From: Candidatus Altimarinota bacterium | GTDB taxonomy: Bacteria > Patescibacteriota > Gracilibacteria > UBA1369 > GCA-2718715 | NCBI GenBank assembly: GCA_041242255.1 | Contig: JBESAV010000001.1 | Coordinates: forward strand, 64,001-128,000 | Direction of reading: 5' to 3' | Length of the DNA stretch: 64,000 nt | Made by a program: the position numbers and the translations under genes | Shown: one piece after another, positions 2,649-27,179 of the stretch | Numbering within the stretch: position 1 is the first letter of the stretch | Layout: every line of letters begins with the position of its first letter | Notes under the pieces: model-generated | Database searches by the model: none | Seen by the model: the letters and a program-made list of their open reading frames with translations, nothing else | What the model was told of the DNA's origin: nothing

Positions 2649-3278
2649 ATGAAGTTTTTCAAAAAACAAAAGGCTAGTCTTAGCCGGATAGGTGCAGAAT
2701 TAATTGGAACATTTTTCTTATCCAAAATGATTCTTCTAAGTGTAACCGGAAACATTGGACTAAGCGTCCCATTAGCTGCAGCCCTTACTTTAATGGTTTT
2801 CGTTTATACGGTTGGACCAATAAGCGGAGCCCACTTAAACCCAGCTATCACAATCGGGCTTTTAGCTACCAAGAAAATCAAAGTAAAAGAAGCTGCTTGG
2901 TACATCATAGCTCAAATTGTAGGAGCTACTTTAGCCATGTTAAGTATGTATTTAGTTTTCAGCCTACCTGAAGTTTCACCTGATGGGGTAGTATGGCAAA
3001 TCATTCTAGGAGAATTCGTAGGAACCTTTGCTCTAGCTTGGACAGTTTACGCAGTAGCCTCTAAAAAAACTACCGAAGCAGCCTCTGGAATAACAGTAGC
3101 TGGATCTCTTCTTATAGGTATACTTATAGCCAGTCCACTTTCAAACGCAGTCTTAAATCCAGTAGTAGCTCTCGCAATCGGATCAGTCTCAACACTTTAT
3201 CTTCTCACACCAATAGTTGCATCTATATGCGCTATGCTTCTATACAAACACCTAGAATCCTGCGAAATAGAAATATAG
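2649..3278 (+). CDS. MIP/aquaporin family channel
   Basis: SGAHLNPA signature; second motif is NPV; multiple TM segments. Confidence 0.9.
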   Translation: MKFFKKQKASLSRIGAELIGTFFLSKMILLSVTGNIGLSVPLAAALTLMVFVYTVGPISGAHLNPAITIGLLATKKIKVKEAAWYIIAQIVGATLAMLSMYLVFSLPEVSPDGVVWQIILGEFVGTFALAWTVYAVASKKTTEAASGITVAGSLLIGILIASPLSNAVLNPVVALAIGSVSTLYLLTPIVASICAMLLYKHLESCEIEI

Positions 3279-4721: not shown

Positions 4722-5385
4722 TTAACAAATTTAAAACTTCCTCTCCAACTTTCTTAGCCGATGCTGGGTTTTGTCCTGTCACAAGTCTTTCATCTACCTC
4801 AACATGCTCTTGCCATAAATCAGATTTTTCAAATTTAGCACCTCTTTCTCTAAGTTTTGACTCAAGCAAAAAAGGTACAACATTCTCTAATCCTATCTTT
4901 TTCTCTTCAGCATCTGTAAATGAGTTCACTTTCTTACCATCTACTAAATAGTTACCATTACTCATCTTCAAATTAACCAAAGCCGCAGGACCATGACAAA
5001 CAGCACTAACCACACCTCCATTTTCGTAAATCTCTCGACCTATTTTTTGTAAATCTTCATTTTCAGGAAAATCCCACATAGTTCCATGACCACCCACAAA
5101 ATGAATCGCAGAATATTTTGACGAATCAACTTCACTTGGTTTCATCGTATTTTTAATCTTTAACTGATACTCATCGCTTTCCCAAAACTCTTTATTGGTT
5201 TCATCACTCAAGTCAAAAGCATCAATAGGAGCCACCCCTCCTTTCGGACTGACAAAATCAATCTCATATCCAGCCTCATGCAACACCTTCCAAGGATGCG
5301 AAGCTTCAGACATATGAAACCCAGTTGGAACACCAGCCCCTCCTCTCTCAGAATGACTAGTTAACACAAATAAAATCTTTTTCAT
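4711..5385 (-). CDS. DJ-1/PfpI (Hsp31-like, GATase1) protein
   Basis: GGHGTMWD, AVCHGP nucleophile and TGQNPAS. Confidence 0.9.
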   Translation of the reverse strand: MKKILFVLTSHSERGGAGVPTGFHMSEASHPWKVLHEAGYEIDFVSPKGGVAPIDAFDLSDETNKEFWESDEYQLKIKNTMKPSEVDSSKYSAIHFVGGHGTMWDFPENEDLQKIGREIYENGGVVSAVCHGPAALVNLKMSNGNYLVDGKKVNSFTDAEEKKIGLENVVPFLLESKLRERGAKFEKSDLWQEHVEVDERLVTGQNPASAKKVGEEVLNLLNEI

Positions 5386-9274: not shown

Positions 9275-9364
9275 TGGCGGAGAGGAAGGGATTCGAACCC
9301 TCGATACGGTTACCCGCATACACGCTTTCCAAGCGTGCTCCTTCAGCCACTCGGACACCTCTCC
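9275..9364 (-). tRNA. tRNA-Ser(GGA)
   Basis: GGAGAGG...CACGC-TTGGAAA-GCGTG, long variable arm, GGTTCGAATCC T-loop, encoded CCA; 90 nt. Confidence 0.97.
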
Positions 9365-9447: not shown

Positions 9448-10125
9448 ATGAACCTAGAAATGCAAAACCAATTCGACGAATTAGAAAACAATTCTCCAAA
9501 AGCAGATGAAAGCTTAGAAGTAAAAGCAATGACTTCAGCCGAACTCCTGCAAGGCGCACTCGCCTCTTCCGAACTAATGGAACAAATCACTGGTGAACTT
9601 TTAGAAAACCCAAAACTTGCCAAAAAACTTAATCTAGACACCACAGACCCAATCCAACTAGAACTTGAAGTAGGTCGAACCATCCAAAAGCTAGAATCAA
9701 TGTCAGGTCAGCTCACAGACATCATCGAGCTAATCGCTATCATCCTAGTAAACCCAAAAGGCCTTGTTAAAAAATATAAAACAGTCGGAAAAGTAATGAG
9801 CCAGAACGCAGCCGTTCTCGATGAGTTTGAAAACAGACTCGACAACCTAACTGCAGATGAAAACATGCTCAAAGTCGCTTTAGGATACCTAGGAAAACTA
9901 AATCTAAAAATGAACCCAACCTACACAGGATCCAAACTAGTAGCTTACCTCAGCCAACTCACTGGGATTGTCACAGAGGAAGAAACAGCTCAAATGCAAT
10001 CCAACACCGAGCTCCTCGACACTCCAGGCCTAAACATATACATCATCTGGACACTCCTCAAAGACAGTCCGGAACTAACCAAAGAAATCTACGAAACAGC
10101 CATGCAAATCAAAGAACAAGCCTAA
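9448..10125 (+). CDS. Hypothetical helical protein
   Basis: 225-aa ORF followed by a terminator. Confidence 0.65.
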   Translation: MNLEMQNQFDELENNSPKADESLEVKAMTSAELLQGALASSELMEQITGELLENPKLAKKLNLDTTDPIQLELEVGRTIQKLESMSGQLTDIIELIAIILVNPKGLVKKYKTVGKVMSQNAAVLDEFENRLDNLTADENMLKVALGYLGKLNLKMNPTYTGSKLVAYLSQLTGIVTEEETAQMQSNTELLDTPGLNIYIIWTLLKDSPELTKEIYETAMQIKEQA

Positions 10126-10589: not shown

Positions 10590-11204
10590 ATGTTCAACCA
10601 AAACTTCCTATTATTCCTCATAGCAATCATTGCCGCACTCACAGTTCATGAAGCTGCTCACGCTTTAGTAGCATACAAATTAGGTGATTCTACAGCCAAA
10701 GATGAAGGCAGACTAACACTCAACCCACTCAAACATCTAGACCCTTGGGGTAGCCTTCTTTTCTTACTTGTACAATTTGGATGGGGTAAACCAATCCCAG
10801 TAAATCCTATCAACTTCAAAAATCCAAAGAGAGACCAAGCCCTCGTAGCATTAGCTGGCCCAGCTTCCAACCTTCTCTTAGCCCTTTTAGGAGGTATAAT
10901 CTTCACATACATCCCACAAGCTGAAACCTTCGGACTAATCTTCTTACAAATAAACATTGTCTTAGCTATCTTCAATCTTATCCCACTTCCACCATTAGAT
11001 GGATCAAAGATCTTAGGTATCTTCCTCAACGACAACCAATTCATCCGATACCAAAACTTCATCCAAAACTATAGTGGATACATAATTTTAGGAGTATTTG
11101 TTGATCTAGTAATCCTTCCAGAAATCATAAATTTCTCCGTAATAGGATTAATTGTTAACACCTTCACAGCTGTTATCCAAGCTTTCCTTTTAGCAGGAAT
11201 CTAG
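10590..11204 (+). CDS. Site-2 protease (M50)
   Basis: HEAAH, AGPASN and NLIPLPPLDG. Confidence 0.92.
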   Translation: MFNQNFLLFLIAIIAALTVHEAAHALVAYKLGDSTAKDEGRLTLNPLKHLDPWGSLLFLLVQFGWGKPIPVNPINFKNPKRDQALVALAGPASNLLLALLGGIIFTYIPQAETFGLIFLQINIVLAIFNLIPLPPLDGSKILGIFLNDNQFIRYQNFIQNYSGYIILGVFVDLVILPEIINFSVIGLIVNTFTAVIQAFLLAGI

Positions 11205-16655: not shown

Positions 16656-17899
16656 ATCGATTCTTTTACAACATAAGTACTAGCTGGATAATCCATCATA
16701 TTTTGCATAAAATCTCTAAAGCCTGATTCACGCATATGACCGCGCCCCATAAAACTCGTCCCTTTTATCAAACCATGCTTTTGGTTAAACCATTCAGTAG
16801 AAAAATCCGGATATAACTCAGTAACAACAAACTCTTCCTCCGTACAAATCGGTACAAAATCTGAATCAACCCAAGTCGCCACATTCCCTAATTCATGTAC
16901 TCCAAAAACTCTAACATCATCAGGCAAATAATTTCTTCTTACAGTTTTATAAGTCTTTCCTGTATGTATACGGTGCCATTGAGCTTCTTTTATAGGACTC
17001 CCACCAAGATACCTAGAAATAGCATTTGCTTCATATCTATTTAACATAGCTGGCCAAGCCAACGGTAACAACTCTAGTTGATTTGTTAAAGTCTTATAAT
17101 GATATTCCCCATTAACATTTATAAAATTAAAAGGCATACCTCTATCTCTTGTCCTATCCAGATGTCCTTCAAAATCAAAGACCCCTCTCCATAAACCATC
17201 ATCTTCATAACCACCATCCCTTATAAAATCAACTACTTGAGTATTTGTAATCGGATATTTCGAAACCTCAAATCCCTCTAAAATTTCTGAAGCTAAACCT
17301 TGTTCATTATCCCACATAAAAGCATCTACAGAATCGTTATATTGACCAGCACCATAATCAACCCTACCTCCACCCACTTCAACAAACTCCAACTCAACTC
17401 TTTCCATTTCATAAGAATTCAAATCCATTCTTTCTCTATGCTTCTTCATAGAATCAAGTTTGCATATATGAGGAAAAGTAGTTTGATGGTGTAGATTCTC
17501 GTGCTCAATTCCCATCATAATAGCAAAAGCAATTCTCTCATCATTCAAACCACCACTACATATAACTTGTAGAACATCATGATAAAAACGAACTCTATAC
17601 CTATTAAGTTCTTCTAAATCACATCTTTTAAAAGTATCTAAATCATCAATAGAATCAGGACTAACTCCACGCTCAAACAAAACATCAAATTCGTGGTGCT
17701 CTAAATCACAACCAACTTGCTGTAATTTACTTCTAGTAAATGCAGCAGTATGTCCCAAATAAAATAACAACTCTCTTCTTAAAGGATCAGGTTGCTCAGT
17801 CAAAAATTCAAGAAGAACTAAACTAAATAAATTATCATAATCCTTGTAAGATCTAGTGACCTCTGAATAAAACTTCGCCTCTAAACGTTTATTGTTCAT
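16652..17899 (-). CDS. OvoA/EgtB-like sulfoxide synthase homolog (DinB_2 + FGE-sulfatase), no methyltransferase domain
   Basis: LLFYLGHTAAF and MGIEHENLHHQT metal motifs, WDNE, SKYPITN. Confidence 0.75.
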   Translation of the reverse strand: MNNKRLEAKFYSEVTRSYKDYDNLFSLVLLEFLTEQPDPLRRELLFYLGHTAAFTRSKLQQVGCDLEHHEFDVLFERGVSPDSIDDLDTFKRCDLEELNRYRVRFYHDVLQVICSGGLNDERIAFAIMMGIEHENLHHQTTFPHICKLDSMKKHRERMDLNSYEMERVELEFVEVGGGRVDYGAGQYNDSVDAFMWDNEQGLASEILEGFEVSKYPITNTQVVDFIRDGGYEDDGLWRGVFDFEGHLDRTRDRGMPFNFINVNGEYHYKTLTNQLELLPLAWPAMLNRYEANAISRYLGGSPIKEAQWHRIHTGKTYKTVRRNYLPDDVRVFGVHELGNVATWVDSDFVPICTEEEFVVTELYPDFSTEWFNQKHGLIKGTSFMGRGHMRESGFRDFMQNMMDYPASTYVVKESI

Positions 17900-17952
17900 C
17901 CCATATATTTACTTGCAACAATTATCCCCTCGTCATAAAAATAATCAACAAA

Positions 17953-17982
17953 AAAGGCCCACTTATTCAAAAGTAGGCCTTT
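17953..17982 (-). terminator. Intrinsic terminator of the dienelactone hydrolase gene
   Basis: AAAGGCC.ACTT...AAGT.GGCCTTT hairpin with A-run on the + strand. Confidence 0.6.
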
Positions 17983-17995
17983 CAAAAACTAAAAA

Positions 17996-18892
17996 TTATT
18001 TCAAATTCTCACTTAGGAATTCAGTAGTTTTTTCCCATGCATCAAGTGTTTCCTCAGCTGCATAGTTTGATCCTGATGGATTTGCAAAAGCATGTCCAAC
18101 ACCATCATAGATATTAATATCATTTTCAACTCCTAACTCATCCAAAGATGATTCAAAAGCTCTAACTTCTTCTACAGGTATTCCACCATCTTCAGCTCCA
18201 AATATTCCAAGTACAGGACCAGAAATACTTTCAAGCTCTTCAGTTGATGTTACAAGATTACCATAGTAAATCACCGTAGCATCTAAGTCGCTAGCCAATG
18301 AAAGATTCAAGGACTGTTGTCCTCCGAAACACCACCCCATTGAAGCAACTCGTGTATAACCATATTCACTTTCAACCCAATCAATCGCTGATTGCATCTT
18401 AGTAACAGCTTCCTCAGGATTACTTCTTACAGAACCAGCCAATTCACCAGCCTGACTACTTTCTTCAGCAACCTCTCCATCATATAAATCTATTGCAAAC
18501 ACTCTGTACCCTTCATTTGCTAATAAATCAGCCATATATTCGATATTATCATTTAGCCCCCACCACTCATGAATCATTACAACCAAAGGTAATTCTTCCT
18601 CAACATTGGCTGCAGCCATGTATCCTTGAAAACCATCTTCCACAACGTCCATACTTACGATTTCATCTCCAAACTCCTGATCAAACAACATTCTATTGTT
18701 ATCTTCAGCAGTGATACATTCACCATTTTCATCGATTTCATCTTCCTGACATCCCATATGGTTCTCCATATCTTTCATGTCATCCATATTGGACATTTCG
18801 TCTGTATTTGGAGTCATCTGAGCACACCCAGCCAACACCAAAGCCAAAACAATCAAAGATAATTTTCTCATATTTTTTGTTAAATTATTCAA
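17996..18892 (-). CDS. Dienelactone hydrolase family lipoprotein
   Basis: Lipobox LAGC; HEWWGLN, GWCFGG and GHAFANPSG. Confidence 0.9.
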   Translation of the reverse strand: MNNLTKNMRKLSLIVLALVLAGCAQMTPNTDEMSNMDDMKDMENHMGCQEDEIDENGECITAEDNNRMLFDQEFGDEIVSMDVVEDGFQGYMAAANVEEELPLVVMIHEWWGLNDNIEYMADLLANEGYRVFAIDLYDGEVAEESSQAGELAGSVRSNPEEAVTKMQSAIDWVESEYGYTRVASMGWCFGGQQSLNLSLASDLDATVIYYGNLVTSTEELESISGPVLGIFGAEDGGIPVEEVRAFESSLDELGVENDINIYDGVGHAFANPSGSNYAAEETLDAWEKTTEFLSENLK

Positions 18893-18942
18893 TCCATATT
18901 ATGAAACCTCTCCAGCCTAAACTCAAGGTAAACTCAAAACAA

Positions 18943-18971
18943 TTGATCTCCCCCCAACAACTTGCTAATAT
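18943..18971 (+). promoter_or_regulatory. Sigma70-type promoter of the tRNA-Thr locus
   Basis: TTGATC-N17-TAATAT with extended TG, 46 nt upstream of the tRNA 5' end. Confidence 0.6.
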
Positions 18972-19017
18972 CCCCATACTTAAAAGAACAGCGTATCCAG
19001 GGATACGCCCATCAAAA

Positions 19018-19057
19018 GCCGCCGTAGCTCAGTTGGTAGAGCGCACCCATGGTAAGG
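19018..19057 (+). tRNA. 5' half of the disrupted host tRNA-Thr(GGT) (attL)
   Basis: GCCGCCG-TA-GCTC-AGTTGGTA-GAGC-G-CACCC-ATGGTAA-GG then unrelated sequence; its stems pair only with the fragment at 26496-26540. Confidence 0.93.
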
Positions 19058-19185
19058 ATACGGACGTCGGGACAATGCAAGGATTTGACTTTAAACTAAA
19101 GCATAACCTACAATCCCAACACGGTCAATAAACCACCCCTGAAAATATAGGGACATCGGCTTAGGTAAAAAAGTACACATATCAC

Positions 19186-19261
19186 GCCATCTTAGCTCAG
19201 TCGGTAGAGCGCCGCCATGGTAAGGCGGAGGTCGGCAGTTCAAATCTGCTAGATGGCTCCA
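19186..19261 (+). tRNA. Complete element-borne tRNA-Thr(GGT)
   Basis: GCCATCT/AGATGGC acceptor, CCGCC-ATGGTAA-GGCGG anticodon arm, GGCAG-TTCAAAT-CTGCT T arm, TCCA end; 76 nt. Confidence 0.96.
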
Positions 19262-19316
19262 TTTCCATTTCGAACCAGAGATACCTCGTGAATTAATATT
19301 CACTAAGCTCTTTAAA

Positions 19317-20213
19317 ATGGAAAACAATCAAGTATGGCATTACCTACTTCGATACTTAGAATACTCAAAGGTCATTAAAAATTACTCTCAAAACACAATC
19401 AGAAGCTACAAATGCACCATCAAAAGATTTCTCAGAGAAACCAATATAAACACTACCTCAGACCTTAATAAACAAACTATTGAAAGTTGGTTCTTTAAAG
19501 GCCGTTTAGAAAGACATTGGTCACCTAGCACCTTTCGCTCTCACCTCAAGCACATCAACTGCTTGTGTAAGTGGTTAGAGAAAGAAAATCTGATAGAACA
19601 CAATCCATGCCAAGGTATTGAAAAACCAAAACTCGAACACAAACTTCCAAGAACCCTTAGCAAGGAGGAGGCTAAACTTGTCCTAGATACAACATATCAT
19701 ATGAGATACACCTACAAGTTTGAAAGATATCGAAATACCGCTCTGATCGGGATTATGCTTTATGCAGGTTTAAGACGAGGTGAAACAATGAAGCTCAAAC
19801 TTCATGATGTAAAACTTTATGAGAAAACAATCTTCCTAAAGCAAGCTAAAGGCCACAAAGATAGACTAGTCCCAATCAATACAGCCTTAGCCTCAATCCT
19901 AGAACAGTACCTTGTAGAAAGAGGTAGACTCAAGAAAGACTCAATCTACTTCTTTGTAGGAACGAATAACAACCTACCCCTTGGAGAAAAAGTATTCACA
20001 CGGTTAATGAAACAACTCAGAAAGAAAACTAAACTAGATTTTTCAGCCCATACTCTCCGCCACGCATTCGCTCGACTTATGCTAGAGGGAGGTTGTGACA
20101 TCTACACCCTCTCAAAACTGATGGGACACTCCAAAATCACAACCACTACCATTTATCTTTCATGTTCCACCGAACAGATGAGTAAATCTATTGAGATGCA
20201 CAGATTAAATTAA
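19317..20213 (+). CDS. XerC/D-like tyrosine recombinase (integrase 1)
   Basis: AGLRRGE, KGHKDR, HTLRH, LMGHS and TTIY catalytic set; SAM-like N-terminus. Confidence 0.95.
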   Translation: MENNQVWHYLLRYLEYSKVIKNYSQNTIRSYKCTIKRFLRETNINTTSDLNKQTIESWFFKGRLERHWSPSTFRSHLKHINCLCKWLEKENLIEHNPCQGIEKPKLEHKLPRTLSKEEAKLVLDTTYHMRYTYKFERYRNTALIGIMLYAGLRRGETMKLKLHDVKLYEKTIFLKQAKGHKDRLVPINTALASILEQYLVERGRLKKDSIYFFVGTNNNLPLGEKVFTRLMKQLRKKTKLDFSAHTLRHAFARLMLEGGCDIYTLSKLMGHSKITTTTIYLSCSTEQMSKSIEMHRLN

Positions 20214-20225
20214 GTGTTTTAGGAG

Positions 20226-20705
20226 TTAGACTTTCATCCCAAGGAATCCCTTCAAAACACCCCAATAACCTAATGGATTACTTATTCTAATTTGTAGTGA
20301 ATCATCTCCATATGAGGCTGGAACCCATTCACATAACCACATTTTTTTGTAATTGTATCCTTTGTATCTATAAGTAGCTGCAAAACAGAATTTATATTTT
20401 TGTTTGGCTTTAGGTATCTCGACCCATATAGAATCATCACCAATATCTAGATCTGAAATTTTCGCCCTAAAAATTGAAACTGGTACTATATTCCTTATCT
20501 TTTCCTCTGAGCTTATTCGAATTTCTACCAAAACTTTTTCCGAGGTTTCCCCATATCTTTGATTTGATCTAAATTGATATTCAATATAAAGATCAAGGAA
20601 GGGTTCAAAAATTTGCTTGTTATTGTAATAGTTTAAACAATATCCAAGGATTACACCAATGATGGTAAAACCACCTCCAATTAGTGGTGAGAGTAAATCT
20701 GACAT
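20226..20705 (-). CDS. Hypothetical protein with N-terminal membrane anchor
   Basis: 159 aa; hydrophobic N-terminus. Confidence 0.65.
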   Translation of the reverse strand: MSDLLSPLIGGGFTIIGVILGYCLNYYNNKQIFEPFLDLYIEYQFRSNQRYGETSEKVLVEIRISSEEKIRNIVPVSIFRAKISDLDIGDDSIWVEIPKAKQKYKFCFAATYRYKGYNYKKMWLCEWVPASYGDDSLQIRISNPLGYWGVLKGFLGMKV

Positions 20706-20858
20706 GAAAATTAAATTAAATACTAGAATCTATCTTATCACCAAAAGTTAACACTCCTAATATTTCACCATCACTTTCCTTTCAGCAAAACATATCCATC
20801 TATACAGACCTCAAGAGCTCACACCTAATTTTCAAAGAACAAAAGTATCAAATTCAAT

Positions 20859-21866
20859 TTATACCTCTAAAGCAGCTACAAGAATATCTGTAGTATTTTT
20901 GGTCATAGAAGGCAGGCTCTGTATGTAAGTGTAAGTTGTAGACAGTTTTCTATGCCCTAAATGCTTCCTAATATCATCAGTGTCAGCACCCATATGAGCT
21001 AAATAAGTAGCTACATACCTCCTAATAGAGTAAACAGTGATATGAAAACCTAATGTTTTTGAAAGTCTCTGAAAATATTTTTGCATCCCTGACTTAGTCC
21101 ATCTCTTCCCCTTTTTTAATGATTCAAATAAATGATTACCTCGTCTTCCCAGTTTTTTTCTCTCAGCCAGATAATTATTAAGAATTGGCTCAATATACTC
21201 AGGAAGATAGAAAGATTGAACCCTACCTTTTTGCTTAGCTGTTTTATATTTCAGAACTAATCCTTCTTTTTCTTTTGTAATAGAACCTAGATTTAAAGAG
21301 GCTGCTTCACTTGTCCTCATACCCGTGATACACAAAATGTTCACAAATAATTCATTACGTGTCTTCTCCAACCTTGTCCTTTCTTCACTTTCTCTAACAA
21401 AGATTTTCAACTTGTTTACCTGATCATTAGTTAGGCAATCTTTTTCGGTAATTTCTTCTTTGATTTTCCCTACCTTCTTAAACTTATTTTCATCAATAAA
21501 CTCCAATTGCTTTAACCATTTAAAGTAAGTATTTAAATCTTTTCTATATGAATTATAGGTAGTACCAGACCAACCTCTCTTCTCATTAAAATGTCCTAAG
21601 AACCATTTAATGGTATGAATATCATTTACTTCCTCGATGGAAGTAATACCGACTTGGAACAACACAAACCTAAGCTTATCTTTAACGTTTTTTACAGTAG
21701 CCTTACTTCTACCACCTACTATTAGATAATCGTAAATAAAATAGTTCCAATACTCCCAAATAGGAGTTAAACCATCTTTGACAATAAGAGACCTTTTCTC
21801 AATATCACTGAGAAGTTCTTGTAGACTTTCTGGGGCTCGACTTACGTCATAATTTGTATAGCTCAA
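20859..21866 (-). CDS. Tyrosine recombinase (integrase 2)
   Basis: TGMRTSE, KQKG, YSIRR (H-to-Y variant of HxxR), LGHR and TYTY; TTG start. Confidence 0.92.
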   Translation of the reverse strand: MSYTNYDVSRAPESLQELLSDIEKRSLIVKDGLTPIWEYWNYFIYDYLIVGGRSKATVKNVKDKLRFVLFQVGITSIEEVNDIHTIKWFLGHFNEKRGWSGTTYNSYRKDLNTYFKWLKQLEFIDENKFKKVGKIKEEITEKDCLTNDQVNKLKIFVRESEERTRLEKTRNELFVNILCITGMRTSEAASLNLGSITKEKEGLVLKYKTAKQKGRVQSFYLPEYIEPILNNYLAERKKLGRRGNHLFESLKKGKRWTKSGMQKYFQRLSKTLGFHITVYSIRRYVATYLAHMGADTDDIRKHLGHRKLSTTYTYIQSLPSMTKNTTDILVAALEV

Positions 21867-21943
21867 AAACGATTATTTAAAGATAATTTACTTTTGCAAT
21901 CCTTAGCCTAACACGAAAGAAACGGCTTTACAAAGGGCAAAAA

Positions 21944-22510
21944 CTTACCTTGTTTAACAAGGTAAGCCTACACTATTTGACTTGGTTAAGGTCATCGAGA
22001 CTTGCTTGTATTCGTTTTGTGTTCAATAAAAAAATCCACAAAAACCGCTAAAGTTAAACAAAACAAAATTTTGCACTAAATCCAAAACTACAAATTCTGG
22101 GCGGAGAGCATATTTAGGATACATACTTTGAGATATAGATTTACTCTAAACACCTGGTCTAACAAGGTAAAAGCTTAATAAATCATACAAATTTAAAAGT
22201 ACAATCTCCGTCATTTCACGAAAAGCAAGAAAACTGAGAAAGCTCTTTAAACAAAGACAAACCTTACTTTTTAAAATTTCTAAAAGTGTGTTTTTCGGAC
22301 GGACTGCTCATTCTAACAAAAAATATTAAAGTATGATCTACATTTCAAAAGACCTTATCCAACAAGGTAATATATTACAAAAATTAAAAACTCTAAAAAC
22401 ACAATCTCCGCTTTTTTGCCAAAATTGGTAAAATCAAGAAACCTCTTATCATAGATCAAAATACCACTTTTCCAAAATCCAAAAAGTGCTTATTTAGTGC
22501 GGAGAGGTGC
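21944..22510 (+). repeat. Three ~200-bp degenerate tandem repeats with conserved predicted fold
   Basis: ACCT-N5-AACAAGGTAA at 21947, 22152 and 22352; ACAATCTCCG at 22201 and 22401; units 2 and 3 align without gaps at offset 200 (about 104/170 identities by hand count). Confidence 0.85.
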
Positions 22511-22566
22511 GAAGTTTCAACATCAAGTAGATTGTAATATTTGTTAATTTGCGATAATCTTTAAAC

Positions 22567-22685
22567 GAGCTCCAGTTAGTTTTCTTAACGCAAGGAACGT
22601 TCCATCGTTAACCAATTTGGTTAAAGGTGGGTACGTAGCCATATTGGTTTTCCTTGCGAATTCTAATTGGGGCTCCTACGTGCCC
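22567..22685 (+). ncRNA. Unidentified structured RNA / 5' leader
   Basis: Nested stems 22567-79/22663-75, 22589-97/22650-58 and 22608-14/22618-24, plus a crossing pair 22629-38/22676-85. Confidence 0.65.
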
Positions 22686-22703
22686 TCTTTTAATTTTATA
22701 AGC

Positions 22704-23702
22704 ATGAATAAAACACAAACAAAACCTTTCTATAAAAAAGACTGGTTTAAAATATTAATGATAATACTACTTGTAATAGTATTTCCTATATCCCTAATTC
22801 TAGTCATACCAGGACTATTATTCTATTTCATATGGAATCATAAAAAATATCCAAGACTCAGCAAAGTAAGTATTGGACTATCTACTTTAATGTTTATCTT
22901 AACAGTCATCGGATCAATCATGGTCAAACAAGAAGAAAACGAAATACTTGCATTAATCAATCAAGGTCAATTTGAGGAAGCTCAACAATACATAAATGAG
23001 AGCGATCAATCACACATGAAGCTAATGAAAGAATTAGATAAACTTAATGAAGAATTTATAGATGATAAGATAGACGAGTTAGCTACGTTAAAAATAACTG
23101 ATGTAGAAAAAGCAACCACTCTGAAAACATACTCGGATATACCTGTTTTAAATCAAGAAATTGTTGATAGAATCATAAGCAAGTCTGATCAAGTTGAGAT
23201 TAGAATTGCAGAAATTGAAAAGGAGAAGTTGGCAAATGAGCAACAAGAACTTGAAGACACAATTGCAAGAATACAAAGCAAAATTAGACAAATTAACAAT
23301 GGAAGAATACCGATACTAGATATACCCAACACCATTCAAGAATTTCCAGATACACCTGAATTATCTACATATAGAAATCAACTAATTCAAGCAGCACGAA
23401 ACCATCAAATCAAAACCTTACCTACTTTACGTAAAGACTATGCTGAAAGGATAGGTAAAGAGTTATGGGAAAACGATTATGAAATATACACCAAAGGAAA
23501 CGGCCATTCTACAATTGTTTTTGTACACTGGAGCTTTGCAAGCAACTCTAACATCAAAACAACTCATGAGCTATTTAGAGACAAGATTAGTGAGTTAAGA
23601 TTTGATAGAGCTGAATACAAATGGTCAGAATATGGGGAGTACACTTTCTATAACATGGAGTCAAAAGCAGACAGCTATATTGAAGGTATAGATAGTAATT
23701 AG
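22704..23702 (+). CDS. Hypothetical membrane protein (N-terminal TMs, coiled region)
   Basis: Likely ATG at 22704 (MNKTQTKPFYKKDWF...); the ORF-track TTG at 22617 lies inside the structured RNA. Confidence 0.75.
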   Translation: MNKTQTKPFYKKDWFKILMIILLVIVFPISLILVIPGLLFYFIWNHKKYPRLSKVSIGLSTLMFILTVIGSIMVKQEENEILALINQGQFEEAQQYINESDQSHMKLMKELDKLNEEFIDDKIDELATLKITDVEKATTLKTYSDIPVLNQEIVDRIISKSDQVEIRIAEIEKEKLANEQQELEDTIARIQSKIRQINNGRIPILDIPNTIQEFPDTPELSTYRNQLIQAARNHQIKTLPTLRKDYAERIGKELWENDYEIYTKGNGHSTIVFVHWSFASNSNIKTTHELFRDKISELRFDRAEYKWSEYGEYTFYNMESKADSYIEGIDSN

Positions 23703-23724
23703 AAAGTCACACACTCACATAAGA

Positions 23725-24153
23725 CTAAACGTCGCATCTCTTACAAATAGGGCTAGAGTTTCTTCTTACTAAGTCTTTAATATGAACTTCTTTTGTTCTT
23801 GATGTTATAACACTACCTCTGATCTTACTTTTATAATCTTTAGTTAAAAGCTTATCATCAGTCAAAAGAAGCATAGCTTTAGACTTTAAAGCAAGTAAAA
23901 TTATATGATAGTCGTTTGATTTTAAATCATCACATTCAGGCGGACTACTTGACTCATCAATATCATACCCAATTGCTCTTTGATTAATTCTTAAATTTTT
24001 AATAAACCGCATTCTCTTTTCGCCATATTCTTTCTTAAAAATAGAACTCTTTCCATAAACCAAAAGTATTTTTCCTACTTCATTTTGTTGTTCAACATAA
24101 TTACCATCAAGGAAGAAATTATCAAACATATTATTATCAAGGATAAAACACAT
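23725..24153 (-). CDS. PIN-domain (VapC-like) putative ribonuclease
   Basis: N-terminal ILDNN; C-terminal NDYHIILLA...LLLTDDKLL acidic pattern. Confidence 0.65.
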   Translation of the reverse strand: MCFILDNNMFDNFFLDGNYVEQQNEVGKILLVYGKSSIFKKEYGEKRMRFIKNLRINQRAIGYDIDESSSPPECDDLKSNDYHIILLALKSKAMLLLTDDKLLTKDYKSKIRGSVITSRTKEVHIKDLVRRNSSPICKRCDV

Positions 24154-24158
24154 ATTAG

Positions 24159-25391
24159 TTAAAGATTGTTAAATGCCTCATCCAAAAAGAATTCCCGGTA
24201 GGAATCTGGTGCATCAATATAATTACCATTCTTATCAATCTTGATATTATAGACTTGTGCGCCATTTTTATGATTTTCTATATAGACAATATTTATCATA
24301 GAAATCTTTTCAGGATTATCTGTCAAAAACTTCTTCACAGCCCGATCAATAATAAAATCGCTATGTGTTTCAATTACTATTTTTTTGTCTTCATTTAAGA
24401 CCATATCTGCAAAAAAATCACCCATGTGCGCCTGTGCCTTTGGATGTAAATGAACTTCCGGCTGCTGTACTAAATAGAGATCATTTTTTTTTGACATTAA
24501 TGCTCCTATAATAACTGGTAAAGATTGACTTACTCCATATCCGACATCGGCCAAATTACTGTTCACACCTGAGTGCATATCCAATCTTAATTCAAAAGGA
24601 CTCACATTAATTTTTTTGTACCACGAAACTTTTATATCTTTAAACAAACCACTTTTTTTACCATACTCATAAATTTTTTCAGAAATAGACCTATCCTTTA
24701 AAATTTTAGTTAACAGATATGGTGATTCATCATTTTTGTCTGAATTTCTCTTATACATTTCATAAATTCTCTCAGGCTCAGTTCTAATTGGTGAAACTAC
24801 GTGAACTTTACCGGGTAAAGCAAATATCAATTCTTGTATTTTTTTAACAATTGTCATTACTATTTTCTCATCAACATCACTCAACTCATTTTCACTCAAA
24901 ATCATACCAATGAAATAAGTAATGAACCTTAATTCAGTCATATGCTGATAATTCAAGGTATTTTCACTCTCATTTATATCTAGTTCAATATCTTCATGGT
25001 CAGGTATTTGAAACTTAATAAATACTTTGTTTTTTTCCTTTCTAATACTATAAAAATATCCATCACTCCAATCCAAAGAAAGCATATAAGGATGTGCTTT
25101 GCCTTCTTTTGATCTATAACTCAAGCTAATGTAAACACCACCAGCAATCATATTAAATTCAAAAGTTTCAGAATTAGAATTTTTATTTTTCAATTCATCA
25201 AAAGGACCCATTTTGCTCAACATTTCTTCAGATCCGAAGCCAGTTAAATTTGCTGCCATTAAGTTTATTCCAGACAAAATACTAGTTTTACCCGAACTAT
25301 TTTCTCCTACTAAAAAAGTTAATGGTGTGATTTTAATTGATTGTTTCTTTCCAAAGCTTTTAAAATCACTTAACATCATTTGCTTAATCAT
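24159..25391 (-). CDS. ABC-type (AAA_15/AAA_21, DUF3696-like) ATPase
   Basis: Walker A GENSSGKTS, signature ADVGYGVSQ, Walker B/D-loop QQPEVHLHP, H-loop IETHS. Confidence 0.88.
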   Translation of the reverse strand: MIKQMMLSDFKSFGKKQSIKITPLTFLVGENSSGKTSILSGINLMAANLTGFGSEEMLSKMGPFDELKNKNSNSETFEFNMIAGGVYISLSYRSKEGKAHPYMLSLDWSDGYFYSIRKEKNKVFIKFQIPDHEDIELDINESENTLNYQHMTELRFITYFIGMILSENELSDVDEKIVMTIVKKIQELIFALPGKVHVVSPIRTEPERIYEMYKRNSDKNDESPYLLTKILKDRSISEKIYEYGKKSGLFKDIKVSWYKKINVSPFELRLDMHSGVNSNLADVGYGVSQSLPVIIGALMSKKNDLYLVQQPEVHLHPKAQAHMGDFFADMVLNEDKKIVIETHSDFIIDRAVKKFLTDNPEKISMINIVYIENHKNGAQVYNIKIDKNGNYIDAPDSYREFFLDEAFNNL

Positions 25392-25579
25392 TCACGATTG
25401 TAATTAAGAACTTAAACCTATTATACATTAATTATTACATTCTTAAACTTAACATATATTAAACAATCCTATTATTTTCAATCAAATCTTTCAAAGCATC
25501 ACTATATAGAAGGTGATTTCAACCTGTTATGCCTAATAAAGGTAAACATTCTTTTAAATTAACTGATAAAAACAGAATT

Positions 25580-26245
25580 TTAAGTAAGCAAATACTTATT
25601 ATGGACTCCTACAGGTAAAGAACCCCTTTTAGATGGATCCAACTCTAAAATGACTAGATCATTATAAAAAAACTCTAATTCATTTGCTGGGAATTGAATC
25701 AATGACCTCAAATCAGAAGCACAGCTAGAACAAAAATAATAGTCTTGAACATTTTTTAATGAAGAAAACAGACCTGGCTTCTTGTTACACTTATTACACA
25801 CATGACTTCCCTTCTTTACATCAAACATATAGTTATCAATATCCTTAAATCTTTTTTCAAACATATCGTGTAAACTTTCTCTTTCCTCCAACAATCCTCC
25901 TGGTAAAATTGTCGACAAAATTGAATCAAATTCCTCTTTATCAATATCACCCTTAACATACCTCTTACCTAAATCTTCACCTGCCTTTTTTCCAAATATA
26001 ATTAGAGTCACATCTATATCATTCATTCTCTCCAGTAGTGTCTCATATTCAATTTGAGTAATTTTTCCTTTAGCCAACAATCCTTTCAGAGCATCTTCTA
26101 TCTTTGAAATTTTCTTATACACTAAATCAATTTGTTTCTGTAACTTACTCTGATATCGAGCCTTCTTATTTCTAGAAACTTCAGCTTGCCGATTCATTTT
26201 TGTAATACCTGCGTTGATTGATCTAAGTTTCGATTTATACCCCAC
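25580..26245 (-). CDS. Hypothetical protein with two SHOCT-like motifs and a Zn-ribbon
   Basis: LLAKGKITQIEYE and YVKGDIDKEEFD; CNKC...CSSC; GTG start. Confidence 0.65.
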   Translation of the reverse strand: MGYKSKLRSINAGITKMNRQAEVSRNKKARYQSKLQKQIDLVYKKISKIEDALKGLLAKGKITQIEYETLLERMNDIDVTLIIFGKKAGEDLGKRYVKGDIDKEEFDSILSTILPGGLLEERESLHDMFEKRFKDIDNYMFDVKKGSHVCNKCNKKPGLFSSLKNVQDYYFCSSCASDLRSLIQFPANELEFFYNDLVILELDPSKRGSLPVGVHNKYLLT

Positions 26246-26371
26246 GATACAACTTTTACATTTTTTATACTATATCATCATTAAATCACTTTGTAATTGA
26301 GAATCAGGCCATCTTGAAAATAAACATGAGAAAAAGGAAACAACACAAAACTAACACCTTATATTAATCCA

Positions 26372-26380
26372 TGCTATACT
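26372..26380 (+). promoter_or_regulatory. Extended -10 promoter near the element right end, facing attR
   Basis: TGCTATACT (TGnTATACT). Confidence 0.45.
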
Positions 26381-26495
26381 CTCATCACATTCACCAAGGA
26401 TACTCCCCTCGAAATGGGACACCGGCTTTTGAATCCAATCCTTGGATAATAGCTACAGATAGGCAAAATATTGTGCTACTACCTACCTTACATAT

Positions 26496-26540
26496 ATGGT
26501 AAGGGTGAGGTCACGGGTTCAACTCCCGTCGGTGGCTCCA
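26496..26540 (+). tRNA. 3' half of the disrupted host tRNA-Thr(GGT) (attR)
   Basis: ATGGTAA-GGGTG-AGGTC-ACGGG-TTCAACT-CCCGT-CGGTGGC-TCCA; GGGTG and CGGTGGC complement CACCC and GCCGCCG at 19018-19048. Confidence 0.93.
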
Positions 26541-26554
26541 TTTTAATCATATGA

Positions 26555-27121
26555 TCAGTTCTTTGAACCAAAATTCAGCATCTCCAAATAATCAATTCTA
26601 TCCAGAGTATTAGGATTCTCACTTTTCATATCCAACTTTTTCCAAAATCCCAAGAAAAAACCATGACTCACTCCAAATACTTTTTTCCCTTTATATCGAT
26701 CATTAAAAGTTTTAATTCTTTTCTTTATATCTTCATTTTGTTCACTCCCAGAATCTTCAATATTTAAGCTTCTAACAAAATTTTCCCTTATTGCTCTCAA
26801 CGGATTTTCACCATTTTCCACCAATCTCTTAGGACTAAAGCCAATTTCGTTGATCAAAGGTTCCACCACTACATCTTTATCTAAATCAAGTAATCCTAAG
26901 ATCAAATCTAAAGTCTCTCTAGACCTATTTGACTCTGAACAAAGTAGAATATCAGCATTTAAAACATCAGACGGATCAAAACCTTTTATGCCTTCAAGAT
27001 CAAAAACCTGTACAGATGGATCAACTAAACCACTTGCCAACTTCTCTAATTCATCCAAAGTTAACTTAGAGTAATCATCATAGGGTGGCTTCAACCTATT
27101 ATGTCTTATAAAAGTAAACAA
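26555..27121 (-). CDS. Histidine phosphatase (phosphoglycerate mutase-like) family protein
   Basis: FIRH, SxxxRSRET, LINE and VSHG. Confidence 0.7.
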   Translation of the reverse strand: MFTFIRHNRLKPPYDDYSKLTLDELEKLASGLVDPSVQVFDLEGIKGFDPSDVLNADILLCSESNRSRETLDLILGLLDLDKDVVVEPLINEIGFSPKRLVENGENPLRAIRENFVRSLNIEDSGSEQNEDIKKRIKTFNDRYKGKKVFGVSHGFFLGFWKKLDMKSENPNTLDRIDYLEMLNFGSKN

Positions 27122-27179
27122 AAATCCATATTACTTAGTTTAATAATATCAAATTTCACTCATAATTTAAGTAAACAAA

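Follow-up and report, generated by a model that had tools for sequence, protein, structure and literature searches.

The window analysed here, 64,000 nucleotides of the genome of Candidatus Altimarinota bacterium (contig JBESAV010000001.1, positions 64,001 to 128,000; genome G000 in our set), carries an island of 7,447 bp (window positions 19058-26495 plus one copy of a short common core) that is flanked by the two halves of a host tRNA-Thr(GGT) gene. From left to right the island consists of a 128-bp spacer, a complete tRNA-Thr(GGT), a gene for a tyrosine recombinase (int1), a 159-aa open reading frame (ORF), a gene for a second recombinase (int2) and four cargo ORFs, and its G+C content is 32.6% as against 36.4% for the genome (Table 1). 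As set out below, this island very probably broke the single tRNA-Thr(GGT) gene of its host without rebuilding it, and brought a complete tRNA-Thr(GGT) of its own as a replacement.

The island is preceded on the left by the opening 40 nt of a tRNA-Thr(GGT), comprising the acceptor strand GCCGCCG, the D arm, the anticodon-stem strand CACCC, the loop ATGGTAA and a final GG, so that this half ends in the 9-bp core ATGGTAAGG. On the right, a second copy of ATGGTAAGG is followed by GTG, the T arm, the acceptor strand CGGTGGC and TCCA, this half closing with CGGTGGCTCCA. Two stems, acceptor and anticodon, are formed jointly by both halves, and in them the outer halves pair at 12 of 12 positions (11 Watson-Crick pairs and one G-U), and the internal tRNA likewise pairs with itself at 12 of 12, whereas mixed combinations of host and internal halves give three and four stem mismatches. 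No tRNA 3' half follows the left core: the sequence there, set against the host 5' half, produces four acceptor-stem and two anticodon-stem mismatches. The core itself is found three times in the window, always on the + strand (at 19049, 19217 and 26496), while the mean for shuffled windows is 0.66 and 3 of 100 shuffles reach three copies.

When the junctions were scanned with ARAGORN, no tRNA was called at the left junction, at the right junction or in the in-silico attP, and the same was true of both junctions in all four genomes tested. In the in-silico excised junction, ARAGORN called a tRNA-Thr(GGT). Since ARAGORN accepted every chimeric join, mixed halves included, stem counts were used to discriminate between models. 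What is seen here is therefore an attP that lacks the tRNA 3' part and an attL that lacks the intact gene, both of which a classical tRNA island would have; a short core, with no functional tRNA rebuilt at attL or attR; and an attB within a host tRNA gene, with tyrosine integrases nearby that are predicted to catalyse the event. An earlier note on this DNA had proposed from the letters of the window that the host gene is split with only ATGGTAAGG in common, that the left junction rebuilds no tRNA, and that a full, different tRNA-Thr(GGT) lies 128 bp inside with an integrase next to it; each of these statements is confirmed.

The internal gene is the only tRNA-Thr(GGT) that ARAGORN finds in the window, and it has an Rfam score of 67.2 bits. 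The genome, a single 1.0-Mb contig with 30 tRNA genes, contains no other Thr(GGT) gene, has a Thr(TGT) gene elsewhere, and uses ACT and ACC for 62% of its Thr codons (counted in ORFs of 200 aa or more). Across 21 internal tRNAs, one from each of the loci described below, 99.5% of stem cells are paired, and 14 of the 21 pairs have changed on both sides, with G1-C72 and C2-G71 constant throughout; neither the shuffled nor the slid controls approach the observed pairing. The replacement tRNA is thus kept by purifying selection, and it is presumably both expressed and needed by the host.

A search with int1 across 205 genomes of the same order yielded matches at E<=1e-50 in 32 genomes. Twenty-two loci with an integrase at least 52% identical to int1 were fetched, one of which was cut off upstream, leaving 21 that could be assessed. 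All 21 present the same layout of 5' half, 110-128-bp spacer, full tRNA-Thr(GGT), int1 and int2, with 5' halves that end in (A/T)TGGTAAGG; 20 were caught by a pattern search and the last was recognised by inspection. In the complete elements, int2 accompanies int1 in 10 of 10. Displaced 3' halves were detected by pattern in 10 of the 16 longer stretches, several of the others stopping at a contig end, and when joined to the corresponding 5' half they give no stem mismatch in eight of these ten genomes and one in the other two. The clearest case is G134, where the host stems read GCTGCGG/CCGCAGC and the internal ones GCCACCA/TGGTGGC. The common core measures 9-13 bp across the ten genomes, the window having the 9-bp version. 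Because ten different anticodon-stem sequences occur among the 21 broken hosts, recognition seems to need little beyond the loop. The idea in the earlier note that almost any host could be used is supported within this group, whose members are labelled Candidatus Peregrinibacteria, Peribacteria or Patescibacteria, and finds no support beyond it.

The flanks of the G000 island have no synteny match in the fetched family loci and G000 has no genus-mate (genus g1), hence no empty site of its own, so we used the carrier G068 to look for one. In genus g52 a close int1 is present in one genome of eight, that of G068. Its left flank aligns to five genus-mates as far as the end of the core and then stops. 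Three of these relatives (G061, G065 and G067) have an intact tRNA-Thr(GGT) at the syntenic site, with a 5' half identical to the G068 remnant and with no integrase within the fetched flanks of about 1.5 kb; theirs is a plain gene, preceded by neither an upstream half nor a spacer. The 3' half of G068, which lies on another contig behind a typical right end, equals the 3' half of G061 and G065, and the internal tRNA of G068 differs from the host halves. By blastn, the right flank of the G068 3' half had no similarity to the right flanks of its genus-mates.

The two recombinases are Xer-like: the best-scoring models for both are XerD, XerC and XerA, and neither reaches the NCBIfam equivalog cut-off for a XerC or XerD ortholog (int1, 176.7 against 329.6 bits for XerD; int2, 80 against 335 bits for XerC). 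Both have a short SAM-like N-terminus, for which Pfam listed no further N-terminal family of the arm-binding type, and both reading frames are open. In int1, R153, K178/K181, H245, R248, H271 and Y280 are invariant in 20 homologs, and we take these to be the catalytic R, K, H-x-x-R, H/W and Y. It is likely that int1 and int2 catalyse the integration, presumably acting jointly on a simple core site made up of the anticodon loop and its flanks. In the mechanism we propose, the island would insert into the anticodon loop of tRNA-Thr(GGT) by site-specific recombination of the tyrosine-recombinase type. As attP shares only ATGGTAAGG with its target, neither junction has a tRNA and the halves are left 7.4 kb apart. 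The compensating tRNA would be brought by a fixed cassette of attP core, spacer of about 120 bp, tRNA, int1 and int2, and after integration would sit 128 bp downstream of the broken 5' half, while excision would be expected to restore the host gene.

Apart from int1 and int2, which are the only conserved proteins of the ten complete elements, gene content varies from copy to copy. The complete islands are 6.5-10.4 kb long; three copies have in common an ORF of roughly 200-250 aa beyond int2, with no Pfam family, and among the cargo genes of the various copies are those for a KAP NTPase, an SMC-like ATPase, an MmeI/Eco57I-type restriction-modification enzyme, an AAA_14/DUF4143 protein and a secreted nuclease. 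Judged by its family matches, this variable cargo looks like anti-phage defence. No phage or conjugation function was named among the cargo matches, which came from Pfam for the relatives and from Pfam, PADLOC and NCBIfam for the window genome, with many ORFs left matchless and PHROGs not searched. The island works like the tRNA-dependent family of integrating phages, discussed below, without being a temperate phage or a lysogen. On the chromosome, a dienelactone hydrolase gene flanks the island on the left and a gene with weak histidine-phosphatase-like similarity on the right. Further upstream of the Thr(GGT) locus, at window positions 9275-9364 on the opposite (-) strand, lies a tRNA-Ser(GGA) gene; the pairing of Ser(GGA) and Thr(GGT), at 1.5-3 kb upstream, recurs in family f6 (G068, G080, G082, G083, G061 and G064).

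Table 1. Window coordinates of the island, the broken host gene and associated sites
Feature	Position	Strand	Basis and remarks
Putative host tRNA promoter, TTGATC-17-TAATAT (TGcTAATAT as extended -10)	18943-18971	+	sequence only; 8/12 match, unlisted by the promoter scan
A5, broken host tRNA-Thr(GGT), 5' half up to and including the core	19018-19057	+	sequence; stem pairing 12/12 with 26496-26540
attL copy of the 9-bp common core ATGGTAAGG	19049-19057	+	sequence
S, 128-bp spacer, element side of attP	19058-19185	+	recombinase-site-like motifs; hairpin 19134-19155
Promoter-like site TTGACT-18-TACAAT, upstream of the replacement tRNA	19085-19114	+	10/12 match
B, complete element-borne tRNA-Thr(GGT)	19186-19261	+	ARAGORN, Rfam, stem pairing, compensatory change
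Palindrome GTGAAT-TAAT-ATTCAC between B and int1	19288-19303		sequence
int1, Xer-like tyrosine recombinase, 298 aa	19317-20213	+	Pfam Phage_integrase 1.4e-30
ORF, 159 aa, no family	20226-20705	-	
int2, second Xer-like tyrosine recombinase, 335 aa, convergent with int1	20859-21866	-	Pfam Phage_integrase 4.1e-22
Cargo ORF, 361 aa, no family	22617-23702	+	one homolog in the G045 element
Cargo ORF, 142 aa, no family	23725-24153	-	
Cargo AAA_15/AAA_21 ATPase, 410 aa	24159-25391	-	best PADLOC match NsnB, then AriA-like models
Cargo ORF, 221 aa, SHOCT domain and zinc-ribbon-like C-terminus	25580-26245	-	
X, right end of the element, other attP arm	26451-26495	+	relatives: GGCTT-N4-AAGCC hairpin, CTATWC beside core; G000 copy divergent
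A3, core copy (26496-26504) and displaced host 3' half of tRNA-Thr(GGT), CCA included	26496-26540	+	sequence, stem pairing

Joining the right ends and the spacers on paper gives an attP that forms a loosely symmetric site. To the left of the core, the GGCTT-N4-AAGCC hairpin lies about 45 bp away and CTATWC adjoins the core; to the right, GG(A/G)TG TAC YCCTC stands at the core, with GGCTA about 35 bp further right, and 30-60 bp upstream of the tRNA there is an imperfect palindrome whose arms resemble the core-flanking motif. These motifs may be recombinase-binding sites, and the attP copy of G000 is the most divergent of the set. As for RNA structure, Rfam on 18800-19400 returned no spacer family, only the tRNA and a sub-threshold antisense match overlapping it, and RNAalifold found no consensus structure in 21 spacers. 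A hairpin at fixed columns of the spacer was rejected as unconvincing (60.3% paired cells compared with 56.6% in shuffles, 13 of 500 of which reach the observed value). When the 3' part of each spacer was folded separately, the mean z was -1.72 and 10 of 21 sequences fell below -2, which is suggestive only.

Two candidate promoters flank the broken 5' half. A motif similar to the putative host promoter, TGcTTATAT, occurs upstream of the intact gene in genus g52, and within the element the site at 19085-19114 is the region's strongest sigma-70-like candidate. That half-tRNA, replacement tRNA and integrase could share one transcript started by the host promoter, as the earlier note suggested, is conjecture, and the spacer of this copy has a better promoter-like match of its own. 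As a conserved feature, a spacer promoter of the sigma-70 type was not supported, sites being present in 4 of 21 spacers where shuffles average 1.2 and reach 5 at most. A hairpin, AGCGTATCC-AGG-GATACGC, lies at window positions 18990-19009, between the putative host promoter and the broken 5' half.

Several observations weigh against an active island that replaces the gene it breaks. The Thr(TGT) tRNA could in principle read all four ACN codons. In public Logan contigs, a strain about 95% identical and from another study (X5) has the same left-flank end at 19057, the same spacer-tRNA-int1 stretch and the same right end and 3' half, with other sequence over 22.6-26.1 kb (window 22660-26100) in place of the ATPase cargo region; with the same site occupied by different cargo, the window copy may be an old resident rather than a recently mobile one. 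The sole contig that joins the two host halves (X5, 19048 to 26496) has a shorter side of 21 letters, and was not counted as an excision because that side may be another organism's tRNA. No terminal repeats were found in 90 metagenome and viral loci, which were fetched stretches and in many cases partial contigs, nor was any circular form or attP junction, and viral contigs contained no close relative by single-protein search, an alignment search giving matches of at most 31% identity. Among relatives 57-59% identical to int1, three (L107, L108 and L112) are without an upstream 5' half, and L107 carries an identical downstream 3' half, the classical mark. Finally, the internal tRNA of G056 equals its host halves and the 3' halves of G003 are identical, which makes both genomes uninformative and compatible with classical integration. 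Separately, a 610-bp skip at 20213-20824 was seen in the X5 strain.

Some of these points lead to the first alternative, in which the architecture is as described, the host gene has been permanently displaced, and the recombinases are idle or decaying. We consider such a fixed, immobile remnant unlikely, though it has to be taken seriously. The X5 strain, with its shared junctions and different cargo, speaks for it, as do two genomes (G013 and G022) where 5' half, spacer and tRNA persist but the fetched sequence shows no integrase and a pattern search no 3' half, and a metagenome contig (L105) in which the 5' half is internally deleted. Against it stand the open frames of both recombinases and the conserved catalytic residues of int1, the undamaged host halves with their perfect pairing, and the patchy distribution already described, both in genus g52 and in the order. 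Moreover, a quick int1 tree does not follow the host families. The same tree, the product of a quick search only, requires at least five changes of the break-and-replace label, and its break-and-replace clade includes L107 (classical) and L112 (no 5' half).

Signs of turnover are visible in several relatives. In L105, the 5' half lies about 130 bp upstream of a tRNA at 9816-9890 and is mostly without its D arm (GCCACCATAGCT being joined to GCGTTC and the loop), which fits a pseudogene no longer under selection. Two other loci, L071 (G083) and L074 (G139), have two displaced 3' halves in tandem behind a single element (oriented positions 9966/12601 and 10397/10961, respectively), each after a similar right end, an arrangement that suggests serial insertions or the leftover of an earlier element. 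Together, the patterns in G013, G022, L105, G083 and G139 agree with a history in which islands inserted repeatedly, were partly lost and left the foreign tRNA in place. In L036 (G004:C11), two complete tRNA-Thr(GGT) genes (4830-4905 and 10940-11015), identical except in the T arm, stand 6.1 kb apart on either side of three ORFs of 199, 387 and 1009 aa, with no int1 or int2 homolog between them.

The second alternative is a classical integration into the internal tRNA, with an element that runs from the core at 19217 to 26495 and an original gene made of the internal 5' half and 26505-26540; the host would then already have had the 5' half, the spacer and the full tRNA, and the element would have restored the gene with its own 3' half. 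We regard this as very improbable. The core is indeed present inside the internal tRNA, the two ambiguous genomes and the three relatives without an upstream 5' half are as this view would have them, and classical behaviour is common further out in the family. The stem counts oppose it: in the window the internal 5' half and the displaced 3' half give three mismatches where the outer halves give none, and the same combination gives at least two in seven of the ten genomes. The genus-mates of G068, with their plain gene, show no trace of the pre-existing arrangement, and even on this view an upstream 5' half could have arisen only from an earlier insertion that did not restore the gene.

The wider family contains both modes. 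Integrases 38-45% identical to int1 adjoin other tRNAs, and five of six such distant loci are classical, with a full gene and, 7-13 kb downstream, a 45-48-nt 3' copy (92-100% identical) that begins at tRNA position 29-32; the genes concerned are Arg(TCT), Thr(TGT), Thr(CGT) and Lys(TTT). The sixth, in G021, has a tRNA-Lys(CTT) 5' half 146 bp upstream of the full gene. In metagenome contigs, where the best 80 of 421 relatives were examined, a tRNA lies within 400 bp upstream of the integrase in 36 loci, 30 of which could be judged: an upstream 5' half is present in 20 (11 close Thr(GGT), five distant Thr(GGT) and four Thr(CGT) loci) and absent in 10, L107, L108 and L112 among them, at least seven of the 11 close Thr(GGT) loci duplicating genomes already counted. 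Five classical relatives, L096-L100 (G166, G012, G064, G103 and G025), also have a second recombinase; theirs is not a convergent int2 but a paralog resembling int1 (32-35% identical), encoded 6-10 kb downstream on the same strand. In L162 a tRNA called by ARAGORN at 3033-3106 precedes, by 140 bp, an integrase with 44% identity to int1; its anticodon is given as TTA ('Stop'), and it may be a Lys(TTT) gene read with a shift of one base.

That the structure is an artefact of assembly or binning at a repeated tRNA sequence can be set aside almost entirely. It is true that tRNA repeats often break assemblies and that several contigs of relatives start or end at the tRNA. L079 (G063:C27) ends exactly at ATGGTAAGG of tRNA-Thr(GGT), and in several carriers a contig starts no more than some tens of bases from the 5' half; the tRNA site is an assembly break-point, perhaps through mixed populations of occupied and empty sites. 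Yet attL is bridged by Logan contigs from X1 (17500-24260, 0 differences), X3 (18228-20881, no differences) and, by a short margin, X4, and attR by contigs from X3 (26058-27176, no differences) and X5 (26384-26525), and over 20 further assemblies show the pattern. Source samples may be among these runs (X1, X3 and possibly others), and runs X4 and X5 leave parts of the island without cover. A transposon with a 9-bp target-site duplication would account for the direct repeat that flanks the insert, and is just as implausible, there being no transposase and no terminal inverted repeats, a repeat that is always the same anticodon-loop sequence within a shared segment of 9-13 bp, and two tyrosine recombinases as the only conserved proteins.

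Our preferred explanation, that the island broke and replaced the host gene, thus rests on the stem pairing, the 21 of 21 loci with a same-anticodon tRNA, the 3' halves in ten genomes, the empty sites of the G068 genus-mates and the bridging contigs, and with it the central proposal of the earlier note, break-and-replace at an anticodon-loop core of about 9 bp, is upheld. The findings that it had named as telling against the proposal, namely a misassembly, an element-type tRNA beside an intact gene in relatives, or homologs lacking the tRNA, were not encountered.

A broader reading can be offered tentatively, as a proposal somewhat more open to doubt than to belief. Two-recombinase islands of this kind may be widespread in the candidate phyla radiation (CPR) and related uncultured hosts, with a portable core-spacer-tRNA-int cassette that could enter any host sharing a 7-9-bp anticodon loop. 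Because hosts have one gene per tRNA, such an island would be addictive, the loss of its left end being lethal unless excision were exact; decayed copies, of which G013, G022 and L105 would be remnants, would leave a foreign tRNA behind, and in reduced genomes this might be a main route by which tRNA genes are displaced horizontally. In the CPR every tRNA gene is single-copy, and a break in one should be lethal without compensation. The island itself offers a natural case of a mobile element that can do without long target homology, making itself hard to lose and leaving foreign tRNA genes, and its compact attP-tRNA-int cassette is a candidate integration tool for organisms with almost no genetics.

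Among known systems, classical tRNA islands and prophages, the kind covered by the Islander database (PMC4383910), share with this island a recombinase beside the target, a crossover in the anticodon loop and a displaced 3' fragment at the far end. They differ in that here attP is without the tRNA 3' half, attL is without a gene, and a remnant of the 5' half is left. The elements that exploit Xer recombinases are known as IMEX. Like Xer systems, int1 and int2 match XerD, XerC and XerA models best and occur as a pair; unlike them, they are element-borne genes present in about a tenth of the order's genomes, and their target is a tRNA loop, not dif. Sites of integration within tRNA genes have reportedly been sorted into sublocation classes by Williams in 2002.

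The strategy is not without precedent, the principle having been published as tRNA-dependent lysogeny. That study shows by experiment that some actinobacteriophages, including Fionnbharth, LeBron and Gaia, insert into single-copy tRNA genes at cores of 8-17 bp, leave the gene unrestored and depend on a cognate tRNA that they carry; the trait evolved on more than one occasion, among integrases some of which belong to the restoring kind (Guerrero-Bustamante and Hatfull, mBio 2024, PMC10865867). The same paper states that Lactobacillus johnsonii prophage Lj965 reportedly rebuilds no tRNA and encodes the cognate one (PMC10865867), and a 2025 paper mentions a similar case for Mesorhizobium-phage-like prophages (PMC12429752). 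When the literature on Patescibacteria and Peregrinibacteria was searched for integrases and tRNA, no such elements were reported in the collection of papers covered.

With the actinobacteriophages as there described, the island shares a tyrosine integrase, an attB in a single-copy host tRNA gene, a short core (8-17 bp there, 9-13 bp here) and close relatives of the integrase that are classical restoring members. It differs from them in being a 6.5-10.4-kb island without recognisable phage genes in a CPR host of about 1 Mb, and in having two Xer-like recombinases without an arm-binding domain in place of a single lambda-like Int with arm-type sites. The tRNA here belongs to an attP-int cassette, about 120 bp from the core, whereas that of Fionnbharth overlaps gene 37 and is not described in that study as adjoining attP-int. 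The targets here are Thr(GGT), Thr(CGT) and Lys(CTT), and the islands are described from sequence, the actinobacteriophage system by experiment. Lj965 is a Firmicute prophage, unlike this non-viral island of a CPR host. What is new here is therefore the extension of tRNA-dependent integration beyond actinobacteriophages to the CPR, in Peregrinibacteria-like hosts, by a small non-phage island with defence-like cargo, an Xer-like pair of recombinases and a compact attP-tRNA-int cassette, in a layout that recurs at Thr(CGT) and Lys(CTT) beside classical relatives that rebuild their tRNA.

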